A stretch of DNA of 64,000 bases from Ignavibacteriota bacterium. Lineage in GTDB: Bacteria; Bacteroidota; Ignavibacteria; UBA10030; UBA6906. The DNA is taken from the NCBI GenBank assembly GCA_963801355.1, contig CAWDEM010000008.1, positions 1,888,001 through 1,952,000 on the forward strand, given 5' to 3'. A program made the translations under genes and the position numbers. Each line of letters begins with the position of its first letter. The stretch's first letter is position 1. Under the pieces are notes generated by a model. That model was not told where the DNA came from. It worked only from the letters and a program-made list of their open reading frames with translations, and ran no database searches. Shown piece by piece: positions 7,810 to 42,491 of the stretch.

Positions 7810-8979
7810 TCAAAGTTTGACCTCGAGCAGTCTCTTCGAACTTGCCCGGAGTTCCGTGAGTCCTGCAAGCAACACGACAATCGCAAGTATGTATGGCACG
7901 ACATGATTAATCTCGAAGAGCATTCCGGCAATAACCGGAGAAACCGCCATGCTGGCCGACATGATGGACGTCAGAATACCGATCGTCTCCCCACGCCGCA
8001 ATGGCCCCGCACCTCCGGCTACCTGACTCGTGACAACCACACGCAAAACCGCCTGTCCCGTTCCCAGTCCAAGCAGCCCCACGTAGAAGAGCGGAAGTAT
8101 CTCAACGGCAATGCAGACAAGCGCAACGACCAGAATCATCAGCATGATCTCCTGCAATCTGGCCTCATCGAACCTCTTCAACCAGAAGCGCTCCAGAAGA
8201 AACACCTGATTGACGACAACAACTACACCCACCACCGAAAATGCCATCCCCGCTGCGAAGGAACTGAACCCGAAGACATCTTTCACAAAAAGCGCGAACA
8301 CGGACTGCCCGATCACGAATGCAACGGCGAATGTCGTCCAGGTCACGTAGAGCGGACGCAATGGTTTGTCACGCCAGGCACGGATTAACGGCGACAACGG
8401 ATGAAAGTCGATCGCCTTCTCTTTGGAACGGTTGCGATTCGATTCCGGCAAGAAAAGAATCGCGCTCACTGCATTCAACGATGCCAGGATGCCTGCCACC
8501 CAGAACGGGAATACGTGCGAGACTTTGCTGAGCACGCCGCCCAAGATTGGCCCGAGGAGAAATCCGATCCCGAAGATAGCGCTCAAAATACCAAGATTTC
8601 TGGTCCTCTCCTTTTCATCCCTGGCAATGTCGACCATGTATCCCTGCGCGCTCGTGAAGTTGCCGGCTGCCGCACCATCGATAATGCGTCCCAGGAAGAG
8701 CATCCAGACCGATCTCGCGCTAGCGAATACGAACCAGCCGATCGCTGTGCTGATGATGCTCATAATGATCACCGGACGCCGGCCGATGCGATCAGAAAGT
8801 GCTCCAAGGAGTGGTGCGCTGATGAATGAGAAAACAGAGAACGACGCGAAGAGCAGCGTGACGACAGTGGGAGAGACCCCGAATTCCGTTGCGTAGAATG
8901 GCAGGATCGGAATGACAATCCCGAATCCCACAACGTCGACCAGAACAGTGAAAAATACGATATATGTTTCGCGTCGCAT
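7810..8979 (-). CDS. MFS transporter, TetA/DHA1-like
   Basis: Motif A GALSDRIGRRPV, GRIIDG and GFLLGPILGG; about 12 TM segments. Confidence 0.9.
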   Translation of the reverse strand: MRRETYIVFFTVLVDVVGFGIVIPILPFYATEFGVSPTVVTLLFASFSVFSFISAPLLGALSDRIGRRPVIIMSIISTAIGWFVFASARSVWMLFLGRIIDGAAAGNFTSAQGYMVDIARDEKERTRNLGILSAIFGIGFLLGPILGGVLSKVSHVFPFWVAGILASLNAVSAILFLPESNRNRSKEKAIDFHPLSPLIRAWRDKPLRPLYVTWTTFAVAFVIGQSVFALFVKDVFGFSSFAAGMAFSVVGVVVVVNQVFLLERFWLKRFDEARLQEIMLMILVVALVCIAVEILPLFYVGLLGLGTGQAVLRVVVTSQVAGGAGPLRRGETIGILTSIMSASMAVSPVIAGMLFEINHVVPYILAIVVLLAGLTELRASSKRLLEVKL

Positions 8980-25525: not shown

Positions 25526-25598
25526 AGCAAAAGGGACCACTCAAGGTCCCGCGCATTTGACAATCGTCAAAAGACTATCGTCAATCAACAATAGGTTG

Positions 25599-25671
25599 TG
25601 GAGCTGACCGGGATCGAACCGGTGACCTCGTGAATGCCATTCACGCGCTCTCCCAGCTGAGCTACAGCCCC
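25599..25671 (-). tRNA. tRNA-Ala(GGC)
   Basis: GGGGCTGTAGCTCAGCTGGGAGAGCGCGTGAATGGCATTCACGAGGTCACCGGTTCGATCCCGGTCAGCTCCA; G3.U70 pair. Confidence 0.97.
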
Positions 25672-32026: not shown

Positions 32027-34606
32027 CTACCGCACCACGATATTCACGAGTTTGTTTCTCACCACGATGATCTTGACGACCTGTTTACCCTCGGTATATT
32101 TCCGGACACCCGCGTCCGCGGCGGCGAGTTTCTTCAGTTCCTCCTCCTGGGCCGTTGCCGGAACAGCAATCTTGCCGCGGAGCTTGCCGTTGACCTGGAG
32201 GACCACCTCGACGGTATCGCTGTGAATCCGCGCCGGGTCATAGGAAGGCCAGGGTGCGTACGTCAGGCTCTCTGCATGCCCCAGTTTCTGCCAGAGCTCT
32301 TCCGCCACGTGCGGTGCAAACGGCGCAAGGAGAAGAAGGAAGGGCTCCAGCACCGCCCGCGGACGGAGGTCCGCCTTCATCACTTCGTTCACAAAGATCA
32401 TGCACTGGGAGATTACCGTGTTGAAGCGGAGAGCCTCAATGTCATCCCCCACCTTCTTCACCGTTGCGTGGTACACCCGCTCAAGTTCAGGTGTGGGCGT
32501 GTCCGAGTTCAACCGGGGGTCCGTGTTGCCCTGTTCGTCGACGTACAGCCGCCAGACACGGTTCAGAAAACGGAAGACCCCGTCAACTCCCCTCGTGTTC
32601 CAGGGCTTCATCTCTTCAAGGGGTCCCATGAACATCTCGAACAGCCGCATCGCATCGGCCCCGTATTCCTTCACGACGTCGTCAGGGTTCACGACGTTGC
32701 CCCTGGACTTCGACATCTTCCGGGAATCCTCGCCCAGGATGATCCCCTGATGGCGAAGTTTCACGAAGGGCTCCCTGGTGCTCACATGCCCGAGATCGAA
32801 CAGCACCTTGTGCCAGAAGCGGGCGTACATCAGGTGCAGGACGGCATGCTCCGACCCGCCGAGATAGAAATCGACGGGCATCCAGTAGCGTTCCAGCGCC
32901 GGATCACAGAACGCCCGGGCGTTGGACGGGTCAATGTACCGGAGATAGTACCAGCACGAGCCCGCCCATTGGGGCATCGTATTTGTTTCGCGACGTCCTT
33001 TCAGTCCCGTCACAGGATCAACGACAGCGATCCACTCGGTCGCCAGTGCCAGAGGAGATTCCGTCGTACCGCTCGGCTGGAACTTCGTGAGGTCCGGAAG
33101 GAGAAGCGGCAGTTCATCATCCGCCAGGGGTTGCATCGTGCCATCTTCGAAGTGAACGATGGGGATCGGCTCGCCCCAGTATCGCTGCCGCGAAAAGAGC
33201 CAGTCCCGCAGTTTGAATTGTACCACCGGAGTTCCCAGGCCCCGCTTCTCCAACCAGGCGATGATGCGTGATTTTGCCTCGGGCGTTGTCAGGCCGTTCA
33301 GCGACACCTCACTATTGGCGGAATGCACCGCCACCCCGTCGCCGGTATAGGGCTCCTGCAGCACATTTCCTCCGCTGACGACTTCCACAATCGGCAATGC
33401 ATATCTGCGGGCAAACGCATAGTCCCTTTCGTCGTGCCCGGGCACCGCCATGATCGCACCGGTGCCGTATCCCATCAGCACATAGTCGGCAATCCACACA
33501 GGGATCTGAGCTCCGGTGGCCGGATTCACCGCCATGCCCCCCGTAAAAACGCCGGTTTTGTTTTGTTCGACATCCCGCTCGCGCTCGCTTTTGCGGCGGG
33601 CCTGTTCACGGTACGCTTCCACCTGTGCGCGCAGCTCCGGCGTTGTCAATGCATCCACAAGAGGATGCTCCGGCGAAAGCACCATGTACGTCGCCCCGAA
33701 GACCGTATCCGGTCGCGTGGTGAACACACGGAAGTATCCCGTCTGTCCTGCGATCGGAAAATCCATCATCGCGCCCTCCGACCGCCCGATCCAGTTCCGC
33801 TGCTGTTCGAGCGTGGATGCAGGCCAGTCAAGGTCCCGGACATCGTTCAGCAGCCGTTCCGCATAGGCGGTAATCCGCATCATCCATTGTCTCATGGGGC
33901 GGCGTTCAACGCTGTAGCCCTTGTCGACCCACTCGTCCACTTCTTCATTGGCCAGGACTGTGCCGAGCCCCTCGCACCAGTTGACAGGAATTTCCGCGAT
34001 GTAGGCGAGCCTGTAGCGTGCAAGGACGTCCTGTTGCTGTTTTCGCGTCATGCGTTGCCACTCTTCGGACGAAAACGGGACGTCTTCGGCGAGGCCTGCG
34101 GACCCCCGGGAGGCGAAGCGGTCGATGAGGGTCTGGATGGGACGGGCTTTATCAGCCTCCTGATCATACCAGGAGTTGTAGATCTGCAGGAAAATCCATT
34201 GTGTCCATTTGTAGTAGGCGGGATCTGTGGTATCCACTTCCCGTGCCCAGTCGTAGCTCAGCCCCAGCATCTTGATCTGCCGCCTGAACGTCGCGATGTT
34301 CTGCTCCGTCGTCGTGCGCGGATGAATGTTGGTCTGCATAGCGTACCGTTCCGCCGGAAGGCCGAACGCGTCCCACCCCATGGGATGCAGCACGTGGAAA
34401 CCACGCATCCTCTGGAAACGTGCAACGATATCCGTGGCGGTGTATCCCTCCGGATGGCCGACGTGCAGGCCTGCCCCCGAGGGGTAGGGATACATGTCGA
34501 GGATGTAGAGTTTGGGTTTCGAAGAAAGTGGATCCGTCCGGAATGTCTGCTGCTGGTCCCAGTACGCCTGCCACTTGGGTTCAATCGTCGCGAAGGGGTA
34601 CGCCAC
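32027..34606 (-). CDS. leuS: Leucine--tRNA ligase
   Basis: [27 protein letters not shown] and KMSKS. Confidence 0.98.
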
Positions 34607-35549
34607 TGCTGTCTTCCTTGGTGCTTGCTGTCGGTGGATGTTGGGTGACTTGCGATTCCTCGAGATACAGGCGTGCAGTCATGAGGCTGCCGAGCCGGAG
34701 GCGCTCACGGAGCTCATCGGCGGTGGCACCGTGGCGTGCCATCAGCACGGCCGCGGTGTGCCGGAGGGAGAACGGGGTGATGCGGCGGTCCGGGTGCTGT
34801 TTGAGTCCGGCGGTGACGAGTGAAGCATTGATACGGTCGCGCACACCGCGCGTGGTCATGCGCTGGCCCCGGGTGCGGTTGCCCGCACTTGCAAAGAGCG
34901 GCTCTGCCGCCTCCGGGTGCCCGCGAACCGAGAGATACTGGTCGAGGGCGGCCCGCGCCTCCGGCTGCAGCAGCACGCGCTCGTCCTTCTGCTTCCGCCC
35001 TTTCCCCTGCACCAGCATCCAATGTCCGCGGTCGTCATTCGTCAGATCGCGGATGTCGGCACGCACGAGCTCGATTTCCGACAGGCCGCATTGGAGCATG
35101 AGCAGCAGCATGGCATGATCTCTGATGCCGCGCTCGTCCGGTGTGTGCGCGCCCGCGAGCAGGATCCGCACCTCCTCCTCGCTCAGAAAGTCTCTCGAAT
35201 GGGACGCCGGCCGGCGGTTGCCCCCGACGTACCGTGCGGGATTATCCTCCAGGACCTTCCGGTCCACCAGGTAGGCACAGAAACGGCGCAGCGCGGTCAG
35301 GTATGTAGAGACCGACACTTCCGACAATTTTCTGCGGACGGCCAGGTAGTGTTTATACCGGCGCACATCTTTCACGCGGAAACGGAAGTGCGGATCGCGG
35401 GGGAACCACCGGAGGAATTCGCGGAGCGCCCGCGTGTAGGTACCGCGGGTTTCCGGCGTGTCGCGCTTGAGGCTGGCAACGAAACCGTCGAAATGCCGTG
35501 TCAGGGCACGCGTGGAGAGGCGGACCTGCTTGAATGTCGGATCGTTCAT
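34581..35549 (-). CDS. Tyrosine-recombinase-like protein with degenerate active site
   Basis: XerC/D-like SAM and catalytic folds (DNPA, RDHAML, VQGKG, PLF, SLRHT), but GLSEIEL, PFSLRH and RLRL replace GxRxxE, HxLRH and LGH. Confidence 0.88.
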
Positions 35550-35583
35550 GAATGCAGGATGAGAGAAAACGCAATAACAGAAG

Positions 35584-37356
35584 CTAACGAACTCCGGGGG
35601 AAGAAGCAAGGGACTGCGAAGACTGCGGGCAGGCAACGATGCGGATGACCATCATCGTTATGTCATCGGATTGCGGCGCACCGGCGGCGTGCACCAGAAT
35701 GTCGCGGTGTATAGCGTCAAGCAGACCCTGCGCATCTGCGGATCCGGCTCCGGTGATCATCGCCTCCAGGCGTTCTTCTCCGTATTCCCGGCCCGAGCCG
35801 TTCATCGCTTCGCTCACTCCGTCCGTGAAGAGCACCAACCGGTCTCCGGCGCGCAGCGCCACCTCCCCTTCTTCATACGGTGTCGTTGTCTCCATGACGC
35901 CGAGAATCATTCCCCCTTTGTCCAGCCGCTCCAGAGAGCCACCCCCGCGGAGCACATAGGGATAGTTGTGCCCCGCATTCACATAGCGCAAAGTGCACTC
36001 GCGGTGGTCCAGCACTCCCCAGAAAAATGTCACAAACTTGTCGCCTCCGGTGTTCTGGCACATCAGGTCGTTCACGCGCCCGGTGAGTTCCCCGAGCGGC
36101 AGTTTCAGCGGCACCAGGGCGCGAATCGTCGCTTGCGTGTTCGCCATCAGCAGCGCTGCGGGGGTCCCTTTGCCCGACACGTCACCGATGGCAACAACGA
36201 AACGGTGGTCATCAAGCGGCACGACGTCGTAGTAGTCGCCTCCCACCTGCTTTGACGAAAAATTCGCCGCTGCAATATCGACCCCCTGCACGGTCGGGAG
36301 AACACTCGGCAGGAGCCCCTTCTGGATTTCCCGCGCGATCACCAACTCGTCTTCCATACGCTGCTTTTCAATCGCCTCTTTGAACAGGCGGGCGTTTTCC
36401 AGCGTGATGATTGCAAGGTTTCCGAGTGCAGAGAGGAACTCGAAGTCCGCGGGAGCGAACCGTTCGTGATTCAGCTTTTCGCCCAGCAGGATCACCCCCT
36501 GCACCTGCCCCTGCAGCGCCATGGGAACGATCGCACGGAGACCGAGGGACTCCAGAGTCGGACGCGGGTCGACCGCACCGGTCACAATCATCTCCGCAAT
36601 CGCGGTCGGCGTTTTCACTCTCGTCAGCAGGGCCAGCAATTCGGGCTGGGGTAGTGCACCGTCGACCCGCGACGCCGCGATCCGCATGTCACCCCCCTCC
36701 TTCAGGCACACCAGGTACCGGTGCACGCCCACCTGTCCCATAAGGGAAAACACCAGGAGCCGCACAAGCTTCTGGGGATCCAGAACGGCACCGAATTCCT
36801 TCCCCAGCTCAAACAGTGTGTTCAGTTCCTGGATTTTCCGGTCCAGGCGCCGGTTCACCTGTTTCAGCTCGGCGATGATATGGCATTTGGCGATGGCCGT
36901 GGCGGAGATGTTCGCCAGCGAACGGAGATACGTCGTTTCACGCATCGTGAGGCGTCGCGGCGTTCCGCGTCGCCCGAACGCAAGCATCCCGATGGGTCCG
37001 CTCCCGCTCCGGAGGGGCAGGACTATTTCCAACCCTTGCTCGCGGAGATATTTCACCCAGGGGTGACGCTGCGGATTGATGCGATCGACATACTGCATGC
37101 CACGGGGTAATGTGCGGATGGAGAGCGCACACTCCCGCCCCTCCGAAGGCACGCCTTTCACCATCTCGCACCGGTACGTGCCATCGTCATGGCGCAGGAT
37201 AGCCGCACCACGGCTCGACATCAATTTCCCCATGAGGGTCAGCAAGATATGGCTGAGAATGAACCGGAGATCGAGGGATGAATTGATGACCGTGCTGAAT
37301 TCGAAGAGTGCGGAGTGTTCGAAATGGCTTTCGTACGTCGGGGTTGGCGGGGCCAT
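35584..37356 (-). CDS. GAF-GAF-PP2C (SpoIIE/RsbU-like) phosphatase
   Basis: VGGDYYD, GDVSGKG, NAGH, FTDGVSE and SDDIT. Confidence 0.92.
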   Translation of the reverse strand: MAPPTPTYESHFEHSALFEFSTVINSSLDLRFILSHILLTLMGKLMSSRGAAILRHDDGTYRCEMVKGVPSEGRECALSIRTLPRGMQYVDRINPQRHPWVKYLREQGLEIVLPLRSGSGPIGMLAFGRRGTPRRLTMRETTYLRSLANISATAIAKCHIIAELKQVNRRLDRKIQELNTLFELGKEFGAVLDPQKLVRLLVFSLMGQVGVHRYLVCLKEGGDMRIAASRVDGALPQPELLALLTRVKTPTAIAEMIVTGAVDPRPTLESLGLRAIVPMALQGQVQGVILLGEKLNHERFAPADFEFLSALGNLAIITLENARLFKEAIEKQRMEDELVIAREIQKGLLPSVLPTVQGVDIAAANFSSKQVGGDYYDVVPLDDHRFVVAIGDVSGKGTPAALLMANTQATIRALVPLKLPLGELTGRVNDLMCQNTGGDKFVTFFWGVLDHRECTLRYVNAGHNYPYVLRGGGSLERLDKGGMILGVMETTTPYEEGEVALRAGDRLVLFTDGVSEAMNGSGREYGEERLEAMITGAGSADAQGLLDAIHRDILVHAAGAPQSDDITMMVIRIVACPQSSQSLASSPGVR

Positions 37357-37357
37357 G

Positions 37358-37783
37358 TCAGCGGGCGAGGAGCTTGGTCAGGTGTACTTCGTTGTGTCTG
37401 CCCGGGACGATCTTGTATTCGACCTTATCCATCAGGGACTTCATCAGATAGACCCCCAATCCGCCATGGCGGTAGTGTGTGAGGTATTCTTTCATATCGG
37501 GCGACTGGATCCGGGAGGGATCGAAACCGATGCCGGAGTCGGTGATAACGATTTCCAATCCGCCGGTCTTGTTCTTCACCGTCACCGTGATTTCTTTGGA
37601 GGGATCAAATTTATAGGCATGCTTGATGATGTTCGTGCAGGCTTCATCCACTGCGAGGGCGATTTTGCTCACCTCATCATCCGGGAACCCGCATTCCCGC
37701 GCTGCCGCCGAAACGAATTCGCGGACAGCGACGAGGCGTTCGGTGCGACTTTCAATATGGATGGTGCGCTTTCCCACGCTCAT
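37358..37783 (-). CDS. rsbW: Anti-sigma factor Ser kinase, RsbW-like
   Basis: LAVDEACTNIIKHAY, DSGIGF and GGLGVYLMKSLMD. Confidence 0.88.
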   Translation of the reverse strand: MSVGKRTIHIESRTERLVAVREFVSAAARECGFPDDEVSKIALAVDEACTNIIKHAYKFDPSKEITVTVKNKTGGLEIVITDSGIGFDPSRIQSPDMKEYLTHYRHGGLGVYLMKSLMDKVEYKIVPGRHNEVHLTKLLAR

Positions 37784-38133
37784 TTTGCCGCGAGAAATTT
37801 CTGCACCGCGTCCTGCTCGTCTTTGGTGATCTCATACAGGAGGGGAAAACCGAGGAGATCGAAAACGTTGAACACCTTCGCCGACATATTGGAGAGCTTG
37901 ATATCGCCTTTGTTCTTCCGGACATCCTCGATGTAGGCCATGAAGACGCCCAAGCCGGCGCTGCTGATGTAGGAGAGGTCTTTGCAGTTGACGACAATGT
38001 TATAGCGCTGGTTCCTGAGAAGCGTCTGGAATGCCTCCTCCAGGGTGGGAGCAGTATGCGCGTCCAGATATCCCTTCAATTCAAGGATATGGACGGTGTC
38101 GTGTTCCCGTTGCGCGATTTTGAACTCACTCAT
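37780..38133 (-). CDS. rsbV: STAS anti-sigma antagonist, RsbV-like
   Basis: GYLDAHT and phospho-Ser motif YISSAGLG. Confidence 0.9.
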   Translation of the reverse strand: MSEFKIAQREHDTVHILELKGYLDAHTAPTLEEAFQTLLRNQRYNIVVNCKDLSYISSAGLGVFMAYIEDVRKNKGDIKLSNMSAKVFNVFDLLGFPLLYEITKDEQDAVQKFLAAK

Positions 38134-38172
38134 GAAAGCGTCCTCCCAGATGCAGAGCCAACGTGACAGACG

Positions 38173-40275
38173 TTACGCGGGGCCGATCCAGCGCAGCACC
38201 ACGAGGGTCAGATCGTCGTGTGGAGCGCCATGATCGATGAATGTATCCACGGATTGCAGCACTTCCTGTTTGATGTCGGCGGCGGTCCGGCTGCGTAACT
38301 GGCGTGTGATACTGAGCAGCCGCTCGTAGCCGAACTCTTCTCCGTTCTGGTGCGCTTCCGTGACACCGTCGGTATAGAACAAACACACGTCTCCCGGATA
38401 CAGCTGAAGGGACTGTTCCTCGATTGCTCCGGCGAACAGTGCCCCTTCACCCAACCCCAGACCCATGCCGTCAGGTCTGACATAGTCGGCACTCGACACA
38501 CTCGCATACAGCATCGGACAATGTCCGGCACGCGCAAGCGTCAAGAGTCCGGTCCCGAGATCCAGGATTGCGTAAATTAAGCTAACGAATGAGTGTTTGT
38601 CAATAGACCCCGCGAGGACCTTATTGGCCTCTATCATAAAGTCACGCGGCGAGTCGTACTGGGCGCCCAGCGACAGAAAGATCCCCTTCACTTCAGACAT
38701 GTAGAACGCTGCAGGCACTCCCTTGCCGGAGACGTCCCCGACGATGATGCCGAGCCGGTTGCCGGGCAGATCGATGAAATCATAATAGTCCCCTCCCACT
38801 TCGAACGCGGGGGTCGACACCGCATCGAGATCGATGGAGGGATGGGCCGGTAGCACCTGTGGCAGCAGCTTTCTCTGCATCTCCTGCGCGAGTGTCATCT
38901 CCCGGACCAGCCGCTCGCGTTCAATCGATTTCTTGATCAGGCGTGAGTTTTCGATCGCCACGGTCGCCTGGTCGGCGAACGTCGAGATCACATCGATATC
39001 ATCCTTCACGAAACCGAATTCGGTGGACTTCGTCACATACAGAAATCCGAGTGGTCCGACATGGGACACGAGGGGCACGACGACCAGAGAAGCGATCGTG
39101 CCGGACGCAACACGTTGTTGTCCCAGGCGGGGATCACCGGCAAGCGCGTCAATCACCAGCGGTTTCCGGTCGGCCAGCACGCGTGCACGGAGCACACCCA
39201 ATCCTGCCGCGTGGAGGTCTTCAACCTCCCGGGCGGAAATATTTTGCAGGGAGACAATATTCACCAGCAATGACCCGGTACGGACCACGCCGGTCTCCCC
39301 TCCGTCGTCCAGGGAGATGATTTCCAGCCAGCAGCTCTGTGCTTCGCACACCTGCAACGTCATCGCAGTCACCGTCTCCACGAGCTCATTGAAATCAAAT
39401 ACCTGGGTCACAAGCTTACTGAGTGTGTGGATTGACGACACTTCCGAACGCTTCCGGTCGAATGCATCCGCCGTCGGCAAATGGAAGAGCGTACTCACAA
39501 ACGCCATCCCGAAATAGATGTTGCTGAAGAGGAGCGAGAGGGCGACAAATTTCTGCAGGGCCGGTGAGTAATAACTGACCCCCTGGGACAGCAGGGTGTT
39601 CTGACTCAGGATTACATTCAACGTCGTCAGAAACGCGAACAGAAAGAACGCATACACAAGGGAGAGCACTTTCTCCCGTCTGGTCAGGTAGACGATCCAG
39701 GGAAGGCGGAAGGCATTCACGACTCCGGCAGCGATGGCGAGACCATAGAGAATGGAGGTCACGACGCTCGAATCCAGCGGCCGCATTGCGAGCGTCGACA
39801 GCGCAGTAATCAGGATGAGGAACACCAGGACACGGAAATTACGAAGCGTCCACTTCCTCCGGTACTGGAGGACGAGGTCGCGGATCAGCCTCAGGTTCAG
39901 GACGGCAAAGAAACCGACGAGAATACTGACTACCGACGAGAGAAACAGGGTGGCAAAATCCTGCGGCGTCAGCGTGAGATCTTTGGCTTCGAATCCCCTG
40001 GCTGACAGTGAGGAAATCAGCAACACCAGCGTGAGCACCAGAATTGCCCCGATGAGCAGCACGCCGAGCCGCCGGACGGGATGCGGCGTCTGTGCCGGAA
40101 GACTGAGGTCGAGCGCCCGGAAAAGGAGCAAGAACGCACCGGCCGTCACCAGCTCGCGGATGAAGGGCACGCCCGCCAGATCCAACGACACACTCATCAT
40201 GATCACGTCGAAGGCGAACTTCAACGTAAACAGAAAGAGCGCGGCAAAGACGAGCAGGAATGGTCGTAGCTTCAT
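38173..40275 (-). CDS. Membrane-anchored GAF-PP2C (SpoIIE-like) phosphatase
   Basis: Multi-TM N-terminus, GAF domain, VGGDYYD, GDVSGKG, YTDGVTE and HDDLT. Confidence 0.9.
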   Translation of the reverse strand: MKLRPFLLVFAALFLFTLKFAFDVIMMSVSLDLAGVPFIRELVTAGAFLLLFRALDLSLPAQTPHPVRRLGVLLIGAILVLTLVLLISSLSARGFEAKDLTLTPQDFATLFLSSVVSILVGFFAVLNLRLIRDLVLQYRRKWTLRNFRVLVFLILITALSTLAMRPLDSSVVTSILYGLAIAAGVVNAFRLPWIVYLTRREKVLSLVYAFFLFAFLTTLNVILSQNTLLSQGVSYYSPALQKFVALSLLFSNIYFGMAFVSTLFHLPTADAFDRKRSEVSSIHTLSKLVTQVFDFNELVETVTAMTLQVCEAQSCWLEIISLDDGGETGVVRTGSLLVNIVSLQNISAREVEDLHAAGLGVLRARVLADRKPLVIDALAGDPRLGQQRVASGTIASLVVVPLVSHVGPLGFLYVTKSTEFGFVKDDIDVISTFADQATVAIENSRLIKKSIERERLVREMTLAQEMQRKLLPQVLPAHPSIDLDAVSTPAFEVGGDYYDFIDLPGNRLGIIVGDVSGKGVPAAFYMSEVKGIFLSLGAQYDSPRDFMIEANKVLAGSIDKHSFVSLIYAILDLGTGLLTLARAGHCPMLYASVSSADYVRPDGMGLGLGEGALFAGAIEEQSLQLYPGDVCLFYTDGVTEAHQNGEEFGYERLLSITRQLRSRTAADIKQEVLQSVDTFIDHGAPHDDLTLVVLRWIGPA

Positions 40276-42361: not shown

Positions 42362-42417
42362 GGTCTTGGACTTCCTACGCTACTCTGATGGCTGCGGATG
42401 GTTACGCTTTATACTCG

Positions 42418-42491
42418 TGCGCCTGTCGGGAGTCGAACCCGAAACCTTTGGCTCCGGAGGCCAACACTCTATCCAATTGAGCTACAGGCGC
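42418..42491 (-). tRNA. tRNA-Arg(CCG)
   Basis: GCGCCTGTAGCTCAATTGGATAGAGTGTTGGCCTCCGGAGCCAAAGGTTTCGGGTTCGACTCCCGACAGGCGCA. Confidence 0.97.

Follow-up and report, generated by a model that had tools for sequence, protein, structure and literature searches.

Recombinase-fold proteins with known or proposed roles in DNA binding

Some proteins with the tyrosine recombinase fold have abandoned catalysis and regulate by binding DNA; those demonstrated to date come from phages (MrpR and SroF), a transposon (TnsF) and eukaryotes (DUF3504 proteins). MrpR (YopR), from the Bacillus subtilis prophage SPbeta, has the recombinase fold and keeps only its Glu, Lys and Tyr, with Val/Ser at the first catalytic arginine (Arg-I) of the canonical R-K-H-R-H/W-Y set; it is described as monomeric, as inactive in recombination and as a repressor whose binding site is a repeated element, and its Y304F variant is reported to be destabilised (PMC10516654). 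The MrpR authors propose that such recruitment may be widespread (PMC10516654). Here we describe a chromosomal gene, at 34581..35549 on the minus strand of a 64,000-nucleotide stretch of an Ignavibacteriota bacterium genome (assembly GCA_963801355.1, contig CAWDEM010000008.1, positions 1,888,001 to 1,952,000; hereafter the window), whose product belongs to a family in which Arg-I has been replaced, usually by Ser, and whose upstream region carries a conserved DNA motif. We suggest that the family may act as DNA-binding pseudo-recombinases. If so, it would be a chromosomal, vertically inherited bacterial example, found in several classes of the Bacteroidota-Chlorobi-Rhodothermota group.

The window protein and MrpR share a recombinase fold in which Arg-I and both catalytic histidines are lost and Glu, Lys and Tyr are kept (E160, K183 and Y295 in the window protein; PMC10516654); unlike MrpR, the window protein also keeps the second catalytic arginine (Arg-II). 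An AlphaFold 2 (AF2) model of the window protein matched the MrpR structures 8a0a, 8bpz and 8bj6 at Z 13.8-14.3 and the phi3T repressor SroF (9rgl, 9rd5) at Z 15.5-15.6, and was nearer to active recombinases (Z 18-20.5) than to either repressor (Z 13.8-15.6). Neither MrpR nor SroF was among the PDB sequence matches at E <= 0.001, and an independent origin of the family and of MrpR/SroF is the more likely history. MrpR and SroF are prophage lysogeny repressors, whereas the family described here is chromosomal, vertically inherited across classes and placed among housekeeping genes.

Other relatives differ in different ways. XerC and XerD share with the window protein a SAM-like core-binding domain followed by PF00589, with no arm-binding domain, and are its best NCBIfam matches, but lack two insertions seen in it, one of two residues in the Lys hairpin and one of four residues before RMTTR. 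The closest intact relatives that we found are plasmid recombinases, such as WP_012477141.1 (Streptococcus thermophilus pSMQ-316) and WP_015179840.1 (Oscillatoria plasmid pOSC7112.03), which differ from the family in keeping R-K-H-R-H-Y, in having a helix-like C-terminal tail and in adjoining replication or ParA genes. IntDOT, from Bacteroides conjugative transposons, has Ser in place of Arg-I and is active, with the pattern S-K-H-R-H-Y, an exception to the view that Arg-I is essential in every characterised enzyme. Two basal members of the family (loci L101 and L102) match that pattern; the window protein, with Phe and Leu at the His positions, does not. IntDOT-type integrases are described as active, arm-binding enzymes of mobile elements (PMC8138268), whereas the window protein has the SAM-like and PF00589 domains only, no arm-binding domain and no mobile context, its neighbours being housekeeping genes.

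TnsF of Tn6022 is described as an inactive, recombinase-derived selector of DNA targets (PMC10293859), and eukaryotic DUF3504 proteins as recombinase-derived proteins that have lost catalysis and serve DNA or target recognition (PMC3212892). TnsF is transposon-encoded and has zinc fingers with a partial catalytic domain only, and in the DUF3504 proteins, which occur in eukaryotes, the Tyr is gone. The window protein differs from both in standing alone as a full-length protein of a bacterial chromosome. In the open-access literature searched, we found no description of a natural chromosomal bacterial pseudo-recombinase family.

A full-length protein with three of six catalytic residues

The original prediction had described an uninterrupted, full-length XerC/D-like reading frame whose R-K-H-R-H-Y set was changed to S-K-F-R-L-Y, and both the frame and the changes, codon by codon, were borne out. 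Residues were assigned by HMMER alignment to Escherichia coli XerD (1a0p), as follows.

34581..35549, minus strand: pseudo-recombinase gene, product P0001; ATG at 35549, 322 codons, no internal stop
35081-35079, minus strand: TCG, Ser157 at Arg-I (XerD GLRVSEL aligned with GLSEIEL)
35003-35001, minus strand: AAA, Lys183, kept (XerD GKGNKE aligned with GKGRKQ)
34772-34770, minus strand: TTC, Phe260 at the first catalytic His (His-I; XerD PHVLRH aligned with PFSLRH)
34763-34761, minus strand: CGG, Arg263 (Arg-II), kept (same alignment, PHVLRH with PFSLRH)
34697-34695, minus strand: CGG, Arg285, invariant, directly before Leu286
34694-34692, minus strand: CTC, Leu286 at the second catalytic His (His-II; XerD LLGH aligned with RLRL)
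34667-34665, minus strand: TAT, Tyr295, the retained nucleophile position, followed by a short, unconserved, disordered tail

The protein thus reads S157-K183-F260-R263-L286-Y295 in place of R-K-H-R-H/W-Y, with three of the six canonical catalytic residues left; Glu160 is also kept. Although the list of open reading frames (ORFs) extends this frame to a TTG at 35636, we prefer the ATG because most listed homologues, the closest included, are 322 aa long, and the query read from that ATG was covered at 100%. Membership of the superfamily was found at the level of the fold, with PF00589 matching residues 121-297 at 71.3 bits (cut-off 27.1) and the N-terminal SAM-like (core-binding) domains PF13495 and PF02899 ahead of it. 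The protein consists of a core-binding domain at the N terminus, the conserved linker GGNRRPxxHSR and, at the C terminus, a recombinase-fold domain that carries S-K-F-R-L-Y. Isoelectric points are 9.7-10.3.

The AF2 model (mean predicted local distance difference test score, pLDDT, 85.6) has the usual two-domain arrangement; its last helix (289-301) carries Tyr295, and residues 304-322 form a disordered tail (pLDDT <50). The best structural matches, aligned over 267-293 residues, were XerA (Z 20.5), XerH (Z 19.1) and Cre (Z 18-19), and Foldseek gave E values of 1e-13 to 1e-9 against recombinase structures. The XerC/D-like label is imprecise: it holds for the fold and the best NCBIfam matches, but scores lay far under the XerC and XerD equivalog cut-offs (TIGR02224, 114.7 against 335.15; TIGR02225, 102.5 against 329.6) and the insertions are those of plasmid recombinases. 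PADLOC gave no match for three family members, the ESM Atlas placed the protein in generic recombinase clusters only, and no fused form was found among proteins of 565-2000 aa at E <= 1e-30, which is weak evidence. Where these proteins carry a name in the sources, it is XerC, XerD, integrase or tyrosine-type recombinase; as statements of function these names are probably wrong, and they could inflate counts of mobile elements or of Xer systems.

The tail after the Tyr varies in length and sequence (median 20 residues counting the Tyr, minimum 3), and no conserved C-terminal segment of the kind seen in XerC/XerD was found in the family tails; the XerD of the same genome has a conserved-looking tail of 20 residues. 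Between clades, the core-binding domain and linker are 53-60% identical, against 39-46% for the 'catalytic' domain, the reverse of the pattern described for active recombinases, in which the catalytic domain is better conserved than the N-terminal one (PMC8138268).

The substitutions are shared by the family and maintained by selection

A search of 5.8 billion proteins returned 1678 matches at E <= 0.001, the best 120 of which (54-98% identity) were aligned with the query. Across these 121 sequences, the Arg-I column held Ser in 119, Ala in one and a gap in one, and Lys, Arg-II and Tyr were present in 121/121; His-I was Tyr in 79, Phe in 38, Gly in 3 and His in 1, and His-II was Leu in 119 and Ile in 2. 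A scan of one genome per species found that 359 genomes encode a relative. We kept 80 loci, labelled Ignavibacteriota/Ignavibacteriae, 'Bacteroidota bacterium', Kapaibacteria/'Chlorobiota' or Rhodothermales, and aligned them with the query. In these 81 rows, Arg-I was again replaced throughout (Ser 78, Ala 3), while Lys and Tyr were present in all 81; His-I was Phe (28), His (28), Tyr (24) or Leu (1), Arg-II was Arg (54), Thr (26) or Cys (1), and His-II was Leu (35), His (26) or Ile (20).

This variation follows clades: S-K-[YF]-R-L-Y in the Ignavibacteria-like clade, which includes the window, S-K-F-R-I-Y in the Kapaibacteria-like clade and S-K-H-T-H-Y in the Rhodothermales clade. A second search, seeded with a protein from a Rhodothermus metagenome-assembled genome (MAG), yielded 120 aligned homologues of the last type, with Ser (119) or Gly (1) at Arg-I, Thr at Arg-II in 120, Lys and both His in 120 each, and Tyr in 119. 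Neither close nor distant homologues retain R/H/H, the outcome that the original prediction had named as refuting it, and the Ser at Arg-I is family-wide.

Pairwise ratios of nonsynonymous to synonymous substitution (dN/dS, Nei-Gojobori) for the pseudo-recombinase gene were 0.03-0.13 in 11 of 13 pairs; the remaining two pairs gave 0.155 and 0.27. The corresponding ratios were 0.055-0.071 in leuS and 0.09-0.10 in the neighbouring gene for a PP2C phosphatase. The gene is under purifying selection comparable to that on leuS. Recent decay, in which this would be a pseudogene or dying integrase in one genome only, is already refuted and has next to no probability: beyond the substitutions themselves there is nothing for it, and against it stand the intact frame, the conservation of the substitutions in hundreds of sequences, a dN/dS of about 0.1 and the conserved synteny.

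Two irregularities were seen among the loci. In L053, L061 and L065 the ORF extends to 402-414 aa, by a C-terminal extension or a missed stop or frameshift. The MAG records L033, L038, L040 and L045, labelled Alphaproteobacteria or Armatimonadota, carry a Kapaibacteria-type protein, three of them (L033, L040 and L045) with Kapaibacteria-type synteny also, and all four taxon labels look wrong.

A DNA motif accompanies the gene in three clades

The motif core C[CT]GTTATTG[CA] accompanies the gene in all three clades despite unrelated neighbours, an association newly described here. It was found by 8-mer counts over the 220 nt upstream and the first 20 nt of the gene, the shared word being present in 18/20 Ignavibacteria-like, 8/12 Kapaibacteria-like and 10/13 Rhodothermales loci. 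Of the 79 loci with at least 60 nt of flank, 61 had the form C[CT]GTTAT[TG][GC] no more than 250 nt upstream of the gene. Its density there (63 matches in 19,344 nt, or 3.26 per kb) compares with 0.030 per kb in the rest of these loci (23 matches in 774,248 nt), an enrichment of about 100-fold. The window copy is as follows.

35582-35571, minus strand: conserved upstream motif TTCTGTTATTGC, ending 21 nt before the ATG; candidate cognate site or operator

Each clade has its own form of the motif. The Ignavibacteria-like form, TA[AG]nTTCTGTTATTGC, is in most loci separated from the start by 14-51 nt; in three deep-branching loci the distance reaches as much as 111 nt. The Rhodothermales form, CCGTTATTGA(C), lies mostly 67-166 nt upstream, where it overlaps a TTGACA-like hexamer, and five separately fetched loci of this type also carry it; the Kapaibacteria-like form, TACCGTTATTGC, is on the opposite strand. 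The motif was not found beside other plasmid relatives or beside the genome's own Xer genes.

Across the whole 4.8 Mb genome the 12-mer occurs once, and the 10-mer CTGTTATTGC occurs 5 times against 6.2 expected and so is not enriched; this count rejects a generic promoter or regulon element. An SOS box, which the divergent ydjM-recO genes of one clade had suggested, was also rejected, as the motif is unlike the Bacteroidetes GGA-N5-TCC, CTAA-N5-TTAG or the Balneolaeota motif.

These counts bear on a reading in which the protein has a non-DNA role, binding RNA or protein, and the motif is the operator of an unrelated regulator or a promoter feature that spans clades. Binding of the motif by the protein is an inference, the motif faces divergent ydjM-recO genes in one clade and overlaps a TTGACA-like hexamer in another, and an Xer-like domain, by its look fused to a Porphyromonas gingivalis ribosome hibernation factor, illustrates that recombinase-like domains of this phylum can occur in unexpected contexts. 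We nevertheless judge this reading rather unlikely. With one 12-mer per genome and a 10-mer at chance frequency, the motif is no general element; it does not resemble the published SOS boxes of Bacteroidetes or Balneolaeota; a separate regulator for a single gene, conserved across classes, is less parsimonious than autoregulation; and conservation within the protein is highest in the DNA core-binding domain and linker.

Additional elements were seen in some loci. The window holds a second near-copy of the motif at 7928-7939 on the minus strand (TCCGGTTATTGC), which mismatches the 12-mer at 2 positions and contains GTTATTGC exactly. In seven Rhodothermales loci (L063, L066, L070, L074, L083, L085 and L088) the motif is followed, some 30 nt further downstream, by another conserved element, TTGATT(G). 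Close to the start, L078 and L080 repeat CCGTTATGCA, and TCCGTTATT occurs in tandem in L066.

A proposed role in DNA binding and autoregulation

Sequence-specific DNA binding is the most likely function of the family. More specifically, we lean, at a little better than even confidence, towards a domesticated pseudo-recombinase that binds the upstream motif and autoregulates in the manner of the phage repressor MrpR, a proposal drawn from sequence comparisons in which we infer the loss of catalysis, the binding of the motif and the repression. Domestication had been proposed in the original prediction, and the family-wide Ser, the purifying selection, the separate Xer genes, the clade-specific decay and the plasmid relatives support it. 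The prediction had offered three functions, a DNA-binding regulator, a nucleoid protein or a non-catalytic Xer partner; the co-conserved upstream motif favours the first, and the last gained no positive support.

On this proposal, an old, vertically inherited family of simple tyrosine-recombinase homologues would have lost the first catalytic Arg at its origin and since been kept for something other than strand exchange. The N-terminal core-binding domain, the linker and the basic C-terminal domain would clamp DNA, and the vestigial pocket (Lys183, Arg263 and Tyr295 in the window's clade) would hold a backbone phosphate instead of cleaving it. Lacking the C-terminal docking segment, it would not form the cyclic tetramer that recombination needs. 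The proposed cognate site is the C[CT]GTTATTG[CA] element near the gene in three bacterial classes, and binding at 35582-35571 would autoregulate the gene and, in the window's clade, probably also the translationally coupled leuS. The family would then let successive stages of decay be read, beginning with members that have lost Arg-I alone and ending with members that have lost Lys or Tyr, and would supply a candidate cognate site as well. Gene and motif co-occur and cultured Rhodothermales carry both, so the idea is directly testable; a named member of the family is present in the cultured Rhodocaloribacter litoris.

Several observations weigh against this proposal. Lys and Tyr are kept in at least 99% of the sequences of the three main clades, which could mean residual chemistry. 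The enrichment of the motif was measured on the same loci in which k-mer counting had found it, 18 of the 79 loci do not have it, and it was not found in the short flanks of 13 divergent members and of a relative in genome G222 (L089-L102). Most instances are single arms (53/60), an inverted partner arm lying within 24 nt in 7/60. The Kapaibacteria-like motif, on the opposite strand, faces the divergent ydjM-recO genes, and the candidate motif could be bound by a different regulator. A scan of 34300-35900 for sigma-70 consensus promoters and terminators returned nothing, including no promoter at the window's motif copy; TTGCTT-17 nt-TAGCTT as a promoter is a guess from the sequence.

Erosion of the active site and plasmid-borne relatives

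Divergent members, taken from the scan of genomes of the phylum, show how far the catalytic set has eroded. The basal group (L101 and L102) has lost Arg-I alone (S-K-H-R-H-Y), and L096 and L097 read T-K-H-V-H-Y. Some sublineages have changed the Lys hairpin from GKG to GED/GEN or SNN: L089-L091, nested in the Rhodothermales type, have lost it (GKG to GED/GEN) along with His-I and Arg-II, and in L098 the Lys is gone while H, R, H and Y are kept. L093 and L095 have Leu or Phe at the Tyr position. In two unrooted trees, one of 61 rows that omitted the truncated L094 ORF and one of 62 rows from which two long-branch rows had been removed, the family formed one side of a branch from 23 canonical Xer rows, with Shimodaira-Hasegawa-like approximate likelihood-ratio test values of 99 and 100. 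The simplest history for these sequences would be that Arg-I was lost early and that the other positions then eroded independently, as relaxed catalytic constraint predicts.

The nearest intact relatives appear, from sequence, to be plasmid-borne recombinases and not XerC/D. Searches of plasmids with tblastn found 33-35% identity (E 1e-28 to 8e-36) to recombinases encoded on small plasmids of S. thermophilus and Lactobacillus and on an Oscillatoria plasmid, and phage matches were weaker. The family and these relatives share the two-residue Lys-hairpin insertion and the four-residue insertion before RMTTR, both absent from XerC/D, and SLRHTA and the Arg before His-II, again unlike XerC/D. One further intact relative, L094 (G222:C33:17800-19300, minus strand), keeps R-K-H-R-H-Y and, at 180 bits on the family hidden Markov model (HMM) against at most 103 for Xer proteins, is the nearest to the family of all the intact relatives; its ORF has one in-frame TGA (read as X) and adjoins a ParA-like ORF, and it is probably on a plasmid or other mobile element. 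The plasmid location of the nearest intact relatives fits the term 'domesticated'. The unrooted tree neither places the plasmid relatives as the sister group nor points to a donor. We also considered a 'migrated arginine', with Arg285 or Arg283 standing in for Arg-I, and rejected it as the explanation of their conservation: Arg285 is inherited and no compensating novelty, because it is present in the intact plasmid relatives and persists in members without the Lys.

The main rival to the preferred reading is a rewired but still active enzyme, whose invariant Tyr and Lys would nick or recombine DNA at the adjacent motif. It would form a gene-plus-site module, as in single-recombinase Xer systems, or resemble IntDOT as an integrase without Arg-I. 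Main-clade sequences retain Tyr and Lys in 121/121, 81/81 and 119-120/120 cases, a conserved site beside the gene has the look of a recombination module, a second inverted arm lies 2-11 nt away in a few loci (7/60), and the basal L101 and L102 carry the S-K-H-R-H-Y of active IntDOT. In Cre, moreover, only Lys and Tyr are reported as strictly required for >5% activity, and His-I and Trp/His-II tolerate several substitutions (PMC2943603). Cre Arg-I, however, is reported to tolerate only His, plus Lys in vivo, R173H being robustly active (PMC2943603); the statement in the original prediction that the first Arg is essential in characterised tyrosine recombinases is therefore not absolute. Rhodothermales-type proteins lack both canonical arginines (Ser and Thr, 120/120), and sublineages have lost Lys or Tyr with the protein still intact. 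The protein has no conserved C-terminal docking segment, its invariant Arg285 already occurs in intact plasmid relatives and so is no compensating novelty, and most motif sites are single arms (53/60). The gene lies mid-replichore, 1.3 Mb from the nearest GC-skew switch, and the synteny is stable with no sign of rearrangement. Nor need a retained Tyr mean catalysis, given that Y304F destabilised MrpR. We consider an active enzyme unlikely, if still worth entertaining. Another form of chemistry, a reversible site-specific covalent nick at the motif by a recombinase-derived 'swivel' or nickase that would serve as a host topological or regulatory switch and not in recombination, seems improbable to us; its active site would have to work without one arginine in the window's clade and without both in Rhodothermales.

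Separate Xer genes and distribution in the phylum

The window's genome (4.8 Mb in 8 contigs) has eight PF00589 matches. Separate Xer genes, whose presence the original prediction had asked to be confirmed, lie elsewhere in it: a canonical XerD (360.4 bits against an equivalog cut-off of 329.6) and an XerC-like protein (334.0 against 335.15, and 302.3 against 279 for NF001399) with R-K-H-R-H-Y intact. The pseudo-recombinase is thus a third paralogue and not part of the cell's only Xer pair. When the first start of this XerD ORF is used (L001, G000:C4:323476-327015), the product gains an N-terminal extension of 81 residues that is rich in Arg, Thr and Pro and holds the short repeat RRITPVRRITPVRRNT; the real start is probably an internal Met.

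When 401 genomes of the phylum were scored with a family profile, the HMM scores were bimodal, with 66 genomes at 141.5-523 bits and all other matches at <=102.8 bits; most of the remaining genomes still have canonical Xer-level matches. Family-level matches were present in 6/7 other genomes of the window's own family and in 0/17 of a sister family of the same order, and in the four largest families sampled they occurred in at most one genome. With so patchy a distribution, the gene must be dispensable in some lineages.

The gene lies mid-replichore (C8:1.92 Mb, with GC-skew switches at C8:0.58 Mb and C4:0.16 Mb). Gene and motif are 1.3 Mb from the nearest switch and hence not near the terminus, although a dif site was not searched for. 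An xerS/difSL-like terminus module was rejected for this genome by the GC skew.

With XerD and an XerC-like protein in the same genome and the same two-domain fold, the protein might be a non-catalytic partner or modulator of XerC/XerD, for example on a dif-like half-site or in regulating dimer resolution; XerD is itself also described in a non-recombination role, as a sequence-specific unloader of SMC (PMC12322038). Against this, the family lacks a conserved C-terminal segment such as links protomers, and the insertions are common with plasmid recombinases and not with XerC/D. The family occurs in 66/401 genomes of the phylum and 0/17 of the sister family, while canonical Xer-level matches occur in most others, and the motif is adjacent to the gene and not at a skew switch. 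We regard an Xer partner as quite improbable, and retain DNA binding with autoregulation as the preferred reading.

Gene neighbourhood

The genes on either side of the pseudo-recombinase gene are as follows.

32027..34606, minus strand: leuS; starts at a GTG inside the pseudo-recombinase gene, with a 26-nt overlap at the end of that gene, a context specific to this clade
35584..37356, minus strand: GAF-GAF-SpoIIE (PP2C) phosphatase gene; TAG at 35586-35584, 34 nt upstream of the pseudo-recombinase gene

Both the 34-bp gap to the PP2C gene and the overlap with the leuS start had been predicted. The PP2C gene is the last of a PP2C-STAS-RsbW-PP2C partner-switching cluster (35584-40275, minus strand) that encodes a membrane GAF-SpoIIE phosphatase, a STAS protein, an RsbW-like kinase and the GAF-GAF-SpoIIE phosphatase, with no adjacent sigma-factor gene. 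This gene order is kept in more than 20 related loci, and leuS lies directly downstream in 37/80; where the flank suffices, the full order PP2C-STAS-RsbW-PP2C-gene-leuS-GT2-ABC is kept. Synteny with rsb and leuS was thus found in the Ignavibacteria-like clade, whereas the other two clades have different neighbours. In Kapaibacteria-like loci, CorA follows in 7/8 examined and recO and ydjM are divergent upstream in 6. Of 12 Rhodothermales loci examined, 8 have a gene for a 2-oxoacid dehydrogenase E2 ahead of the pseudo-recombinase gene.

Of 22 further ORFs between 16.7 and 52.7 kb, 21 have Pfam families and one has no match. No transposase, integrase or phage family was among the Pfam matches of these ORFs and the five nearest genes, no att-like repeat was found (short imperfect repeats only), and no mobile-element gene was seen in the examined loci of the other clades, in agreement with the earlier statement that att sites and mobile genes are absent nearby. 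The nearest tRNAs are at 25598-25671 and 42417-42491.

A separate observation concerns the P. gingivalis ribosome (PDB 9i5v). Its chain 14, labelled 'RaiA', is 401 aa long, and the accompanying paper modelled 34 residues alone of this 400-aa protein (PMC12123416). Residues 53-281 of the chain align to the recombinase family and keep PHVLRH and LLGH, and the chain looks like an Xer-like domain fused to a hibernation factor.

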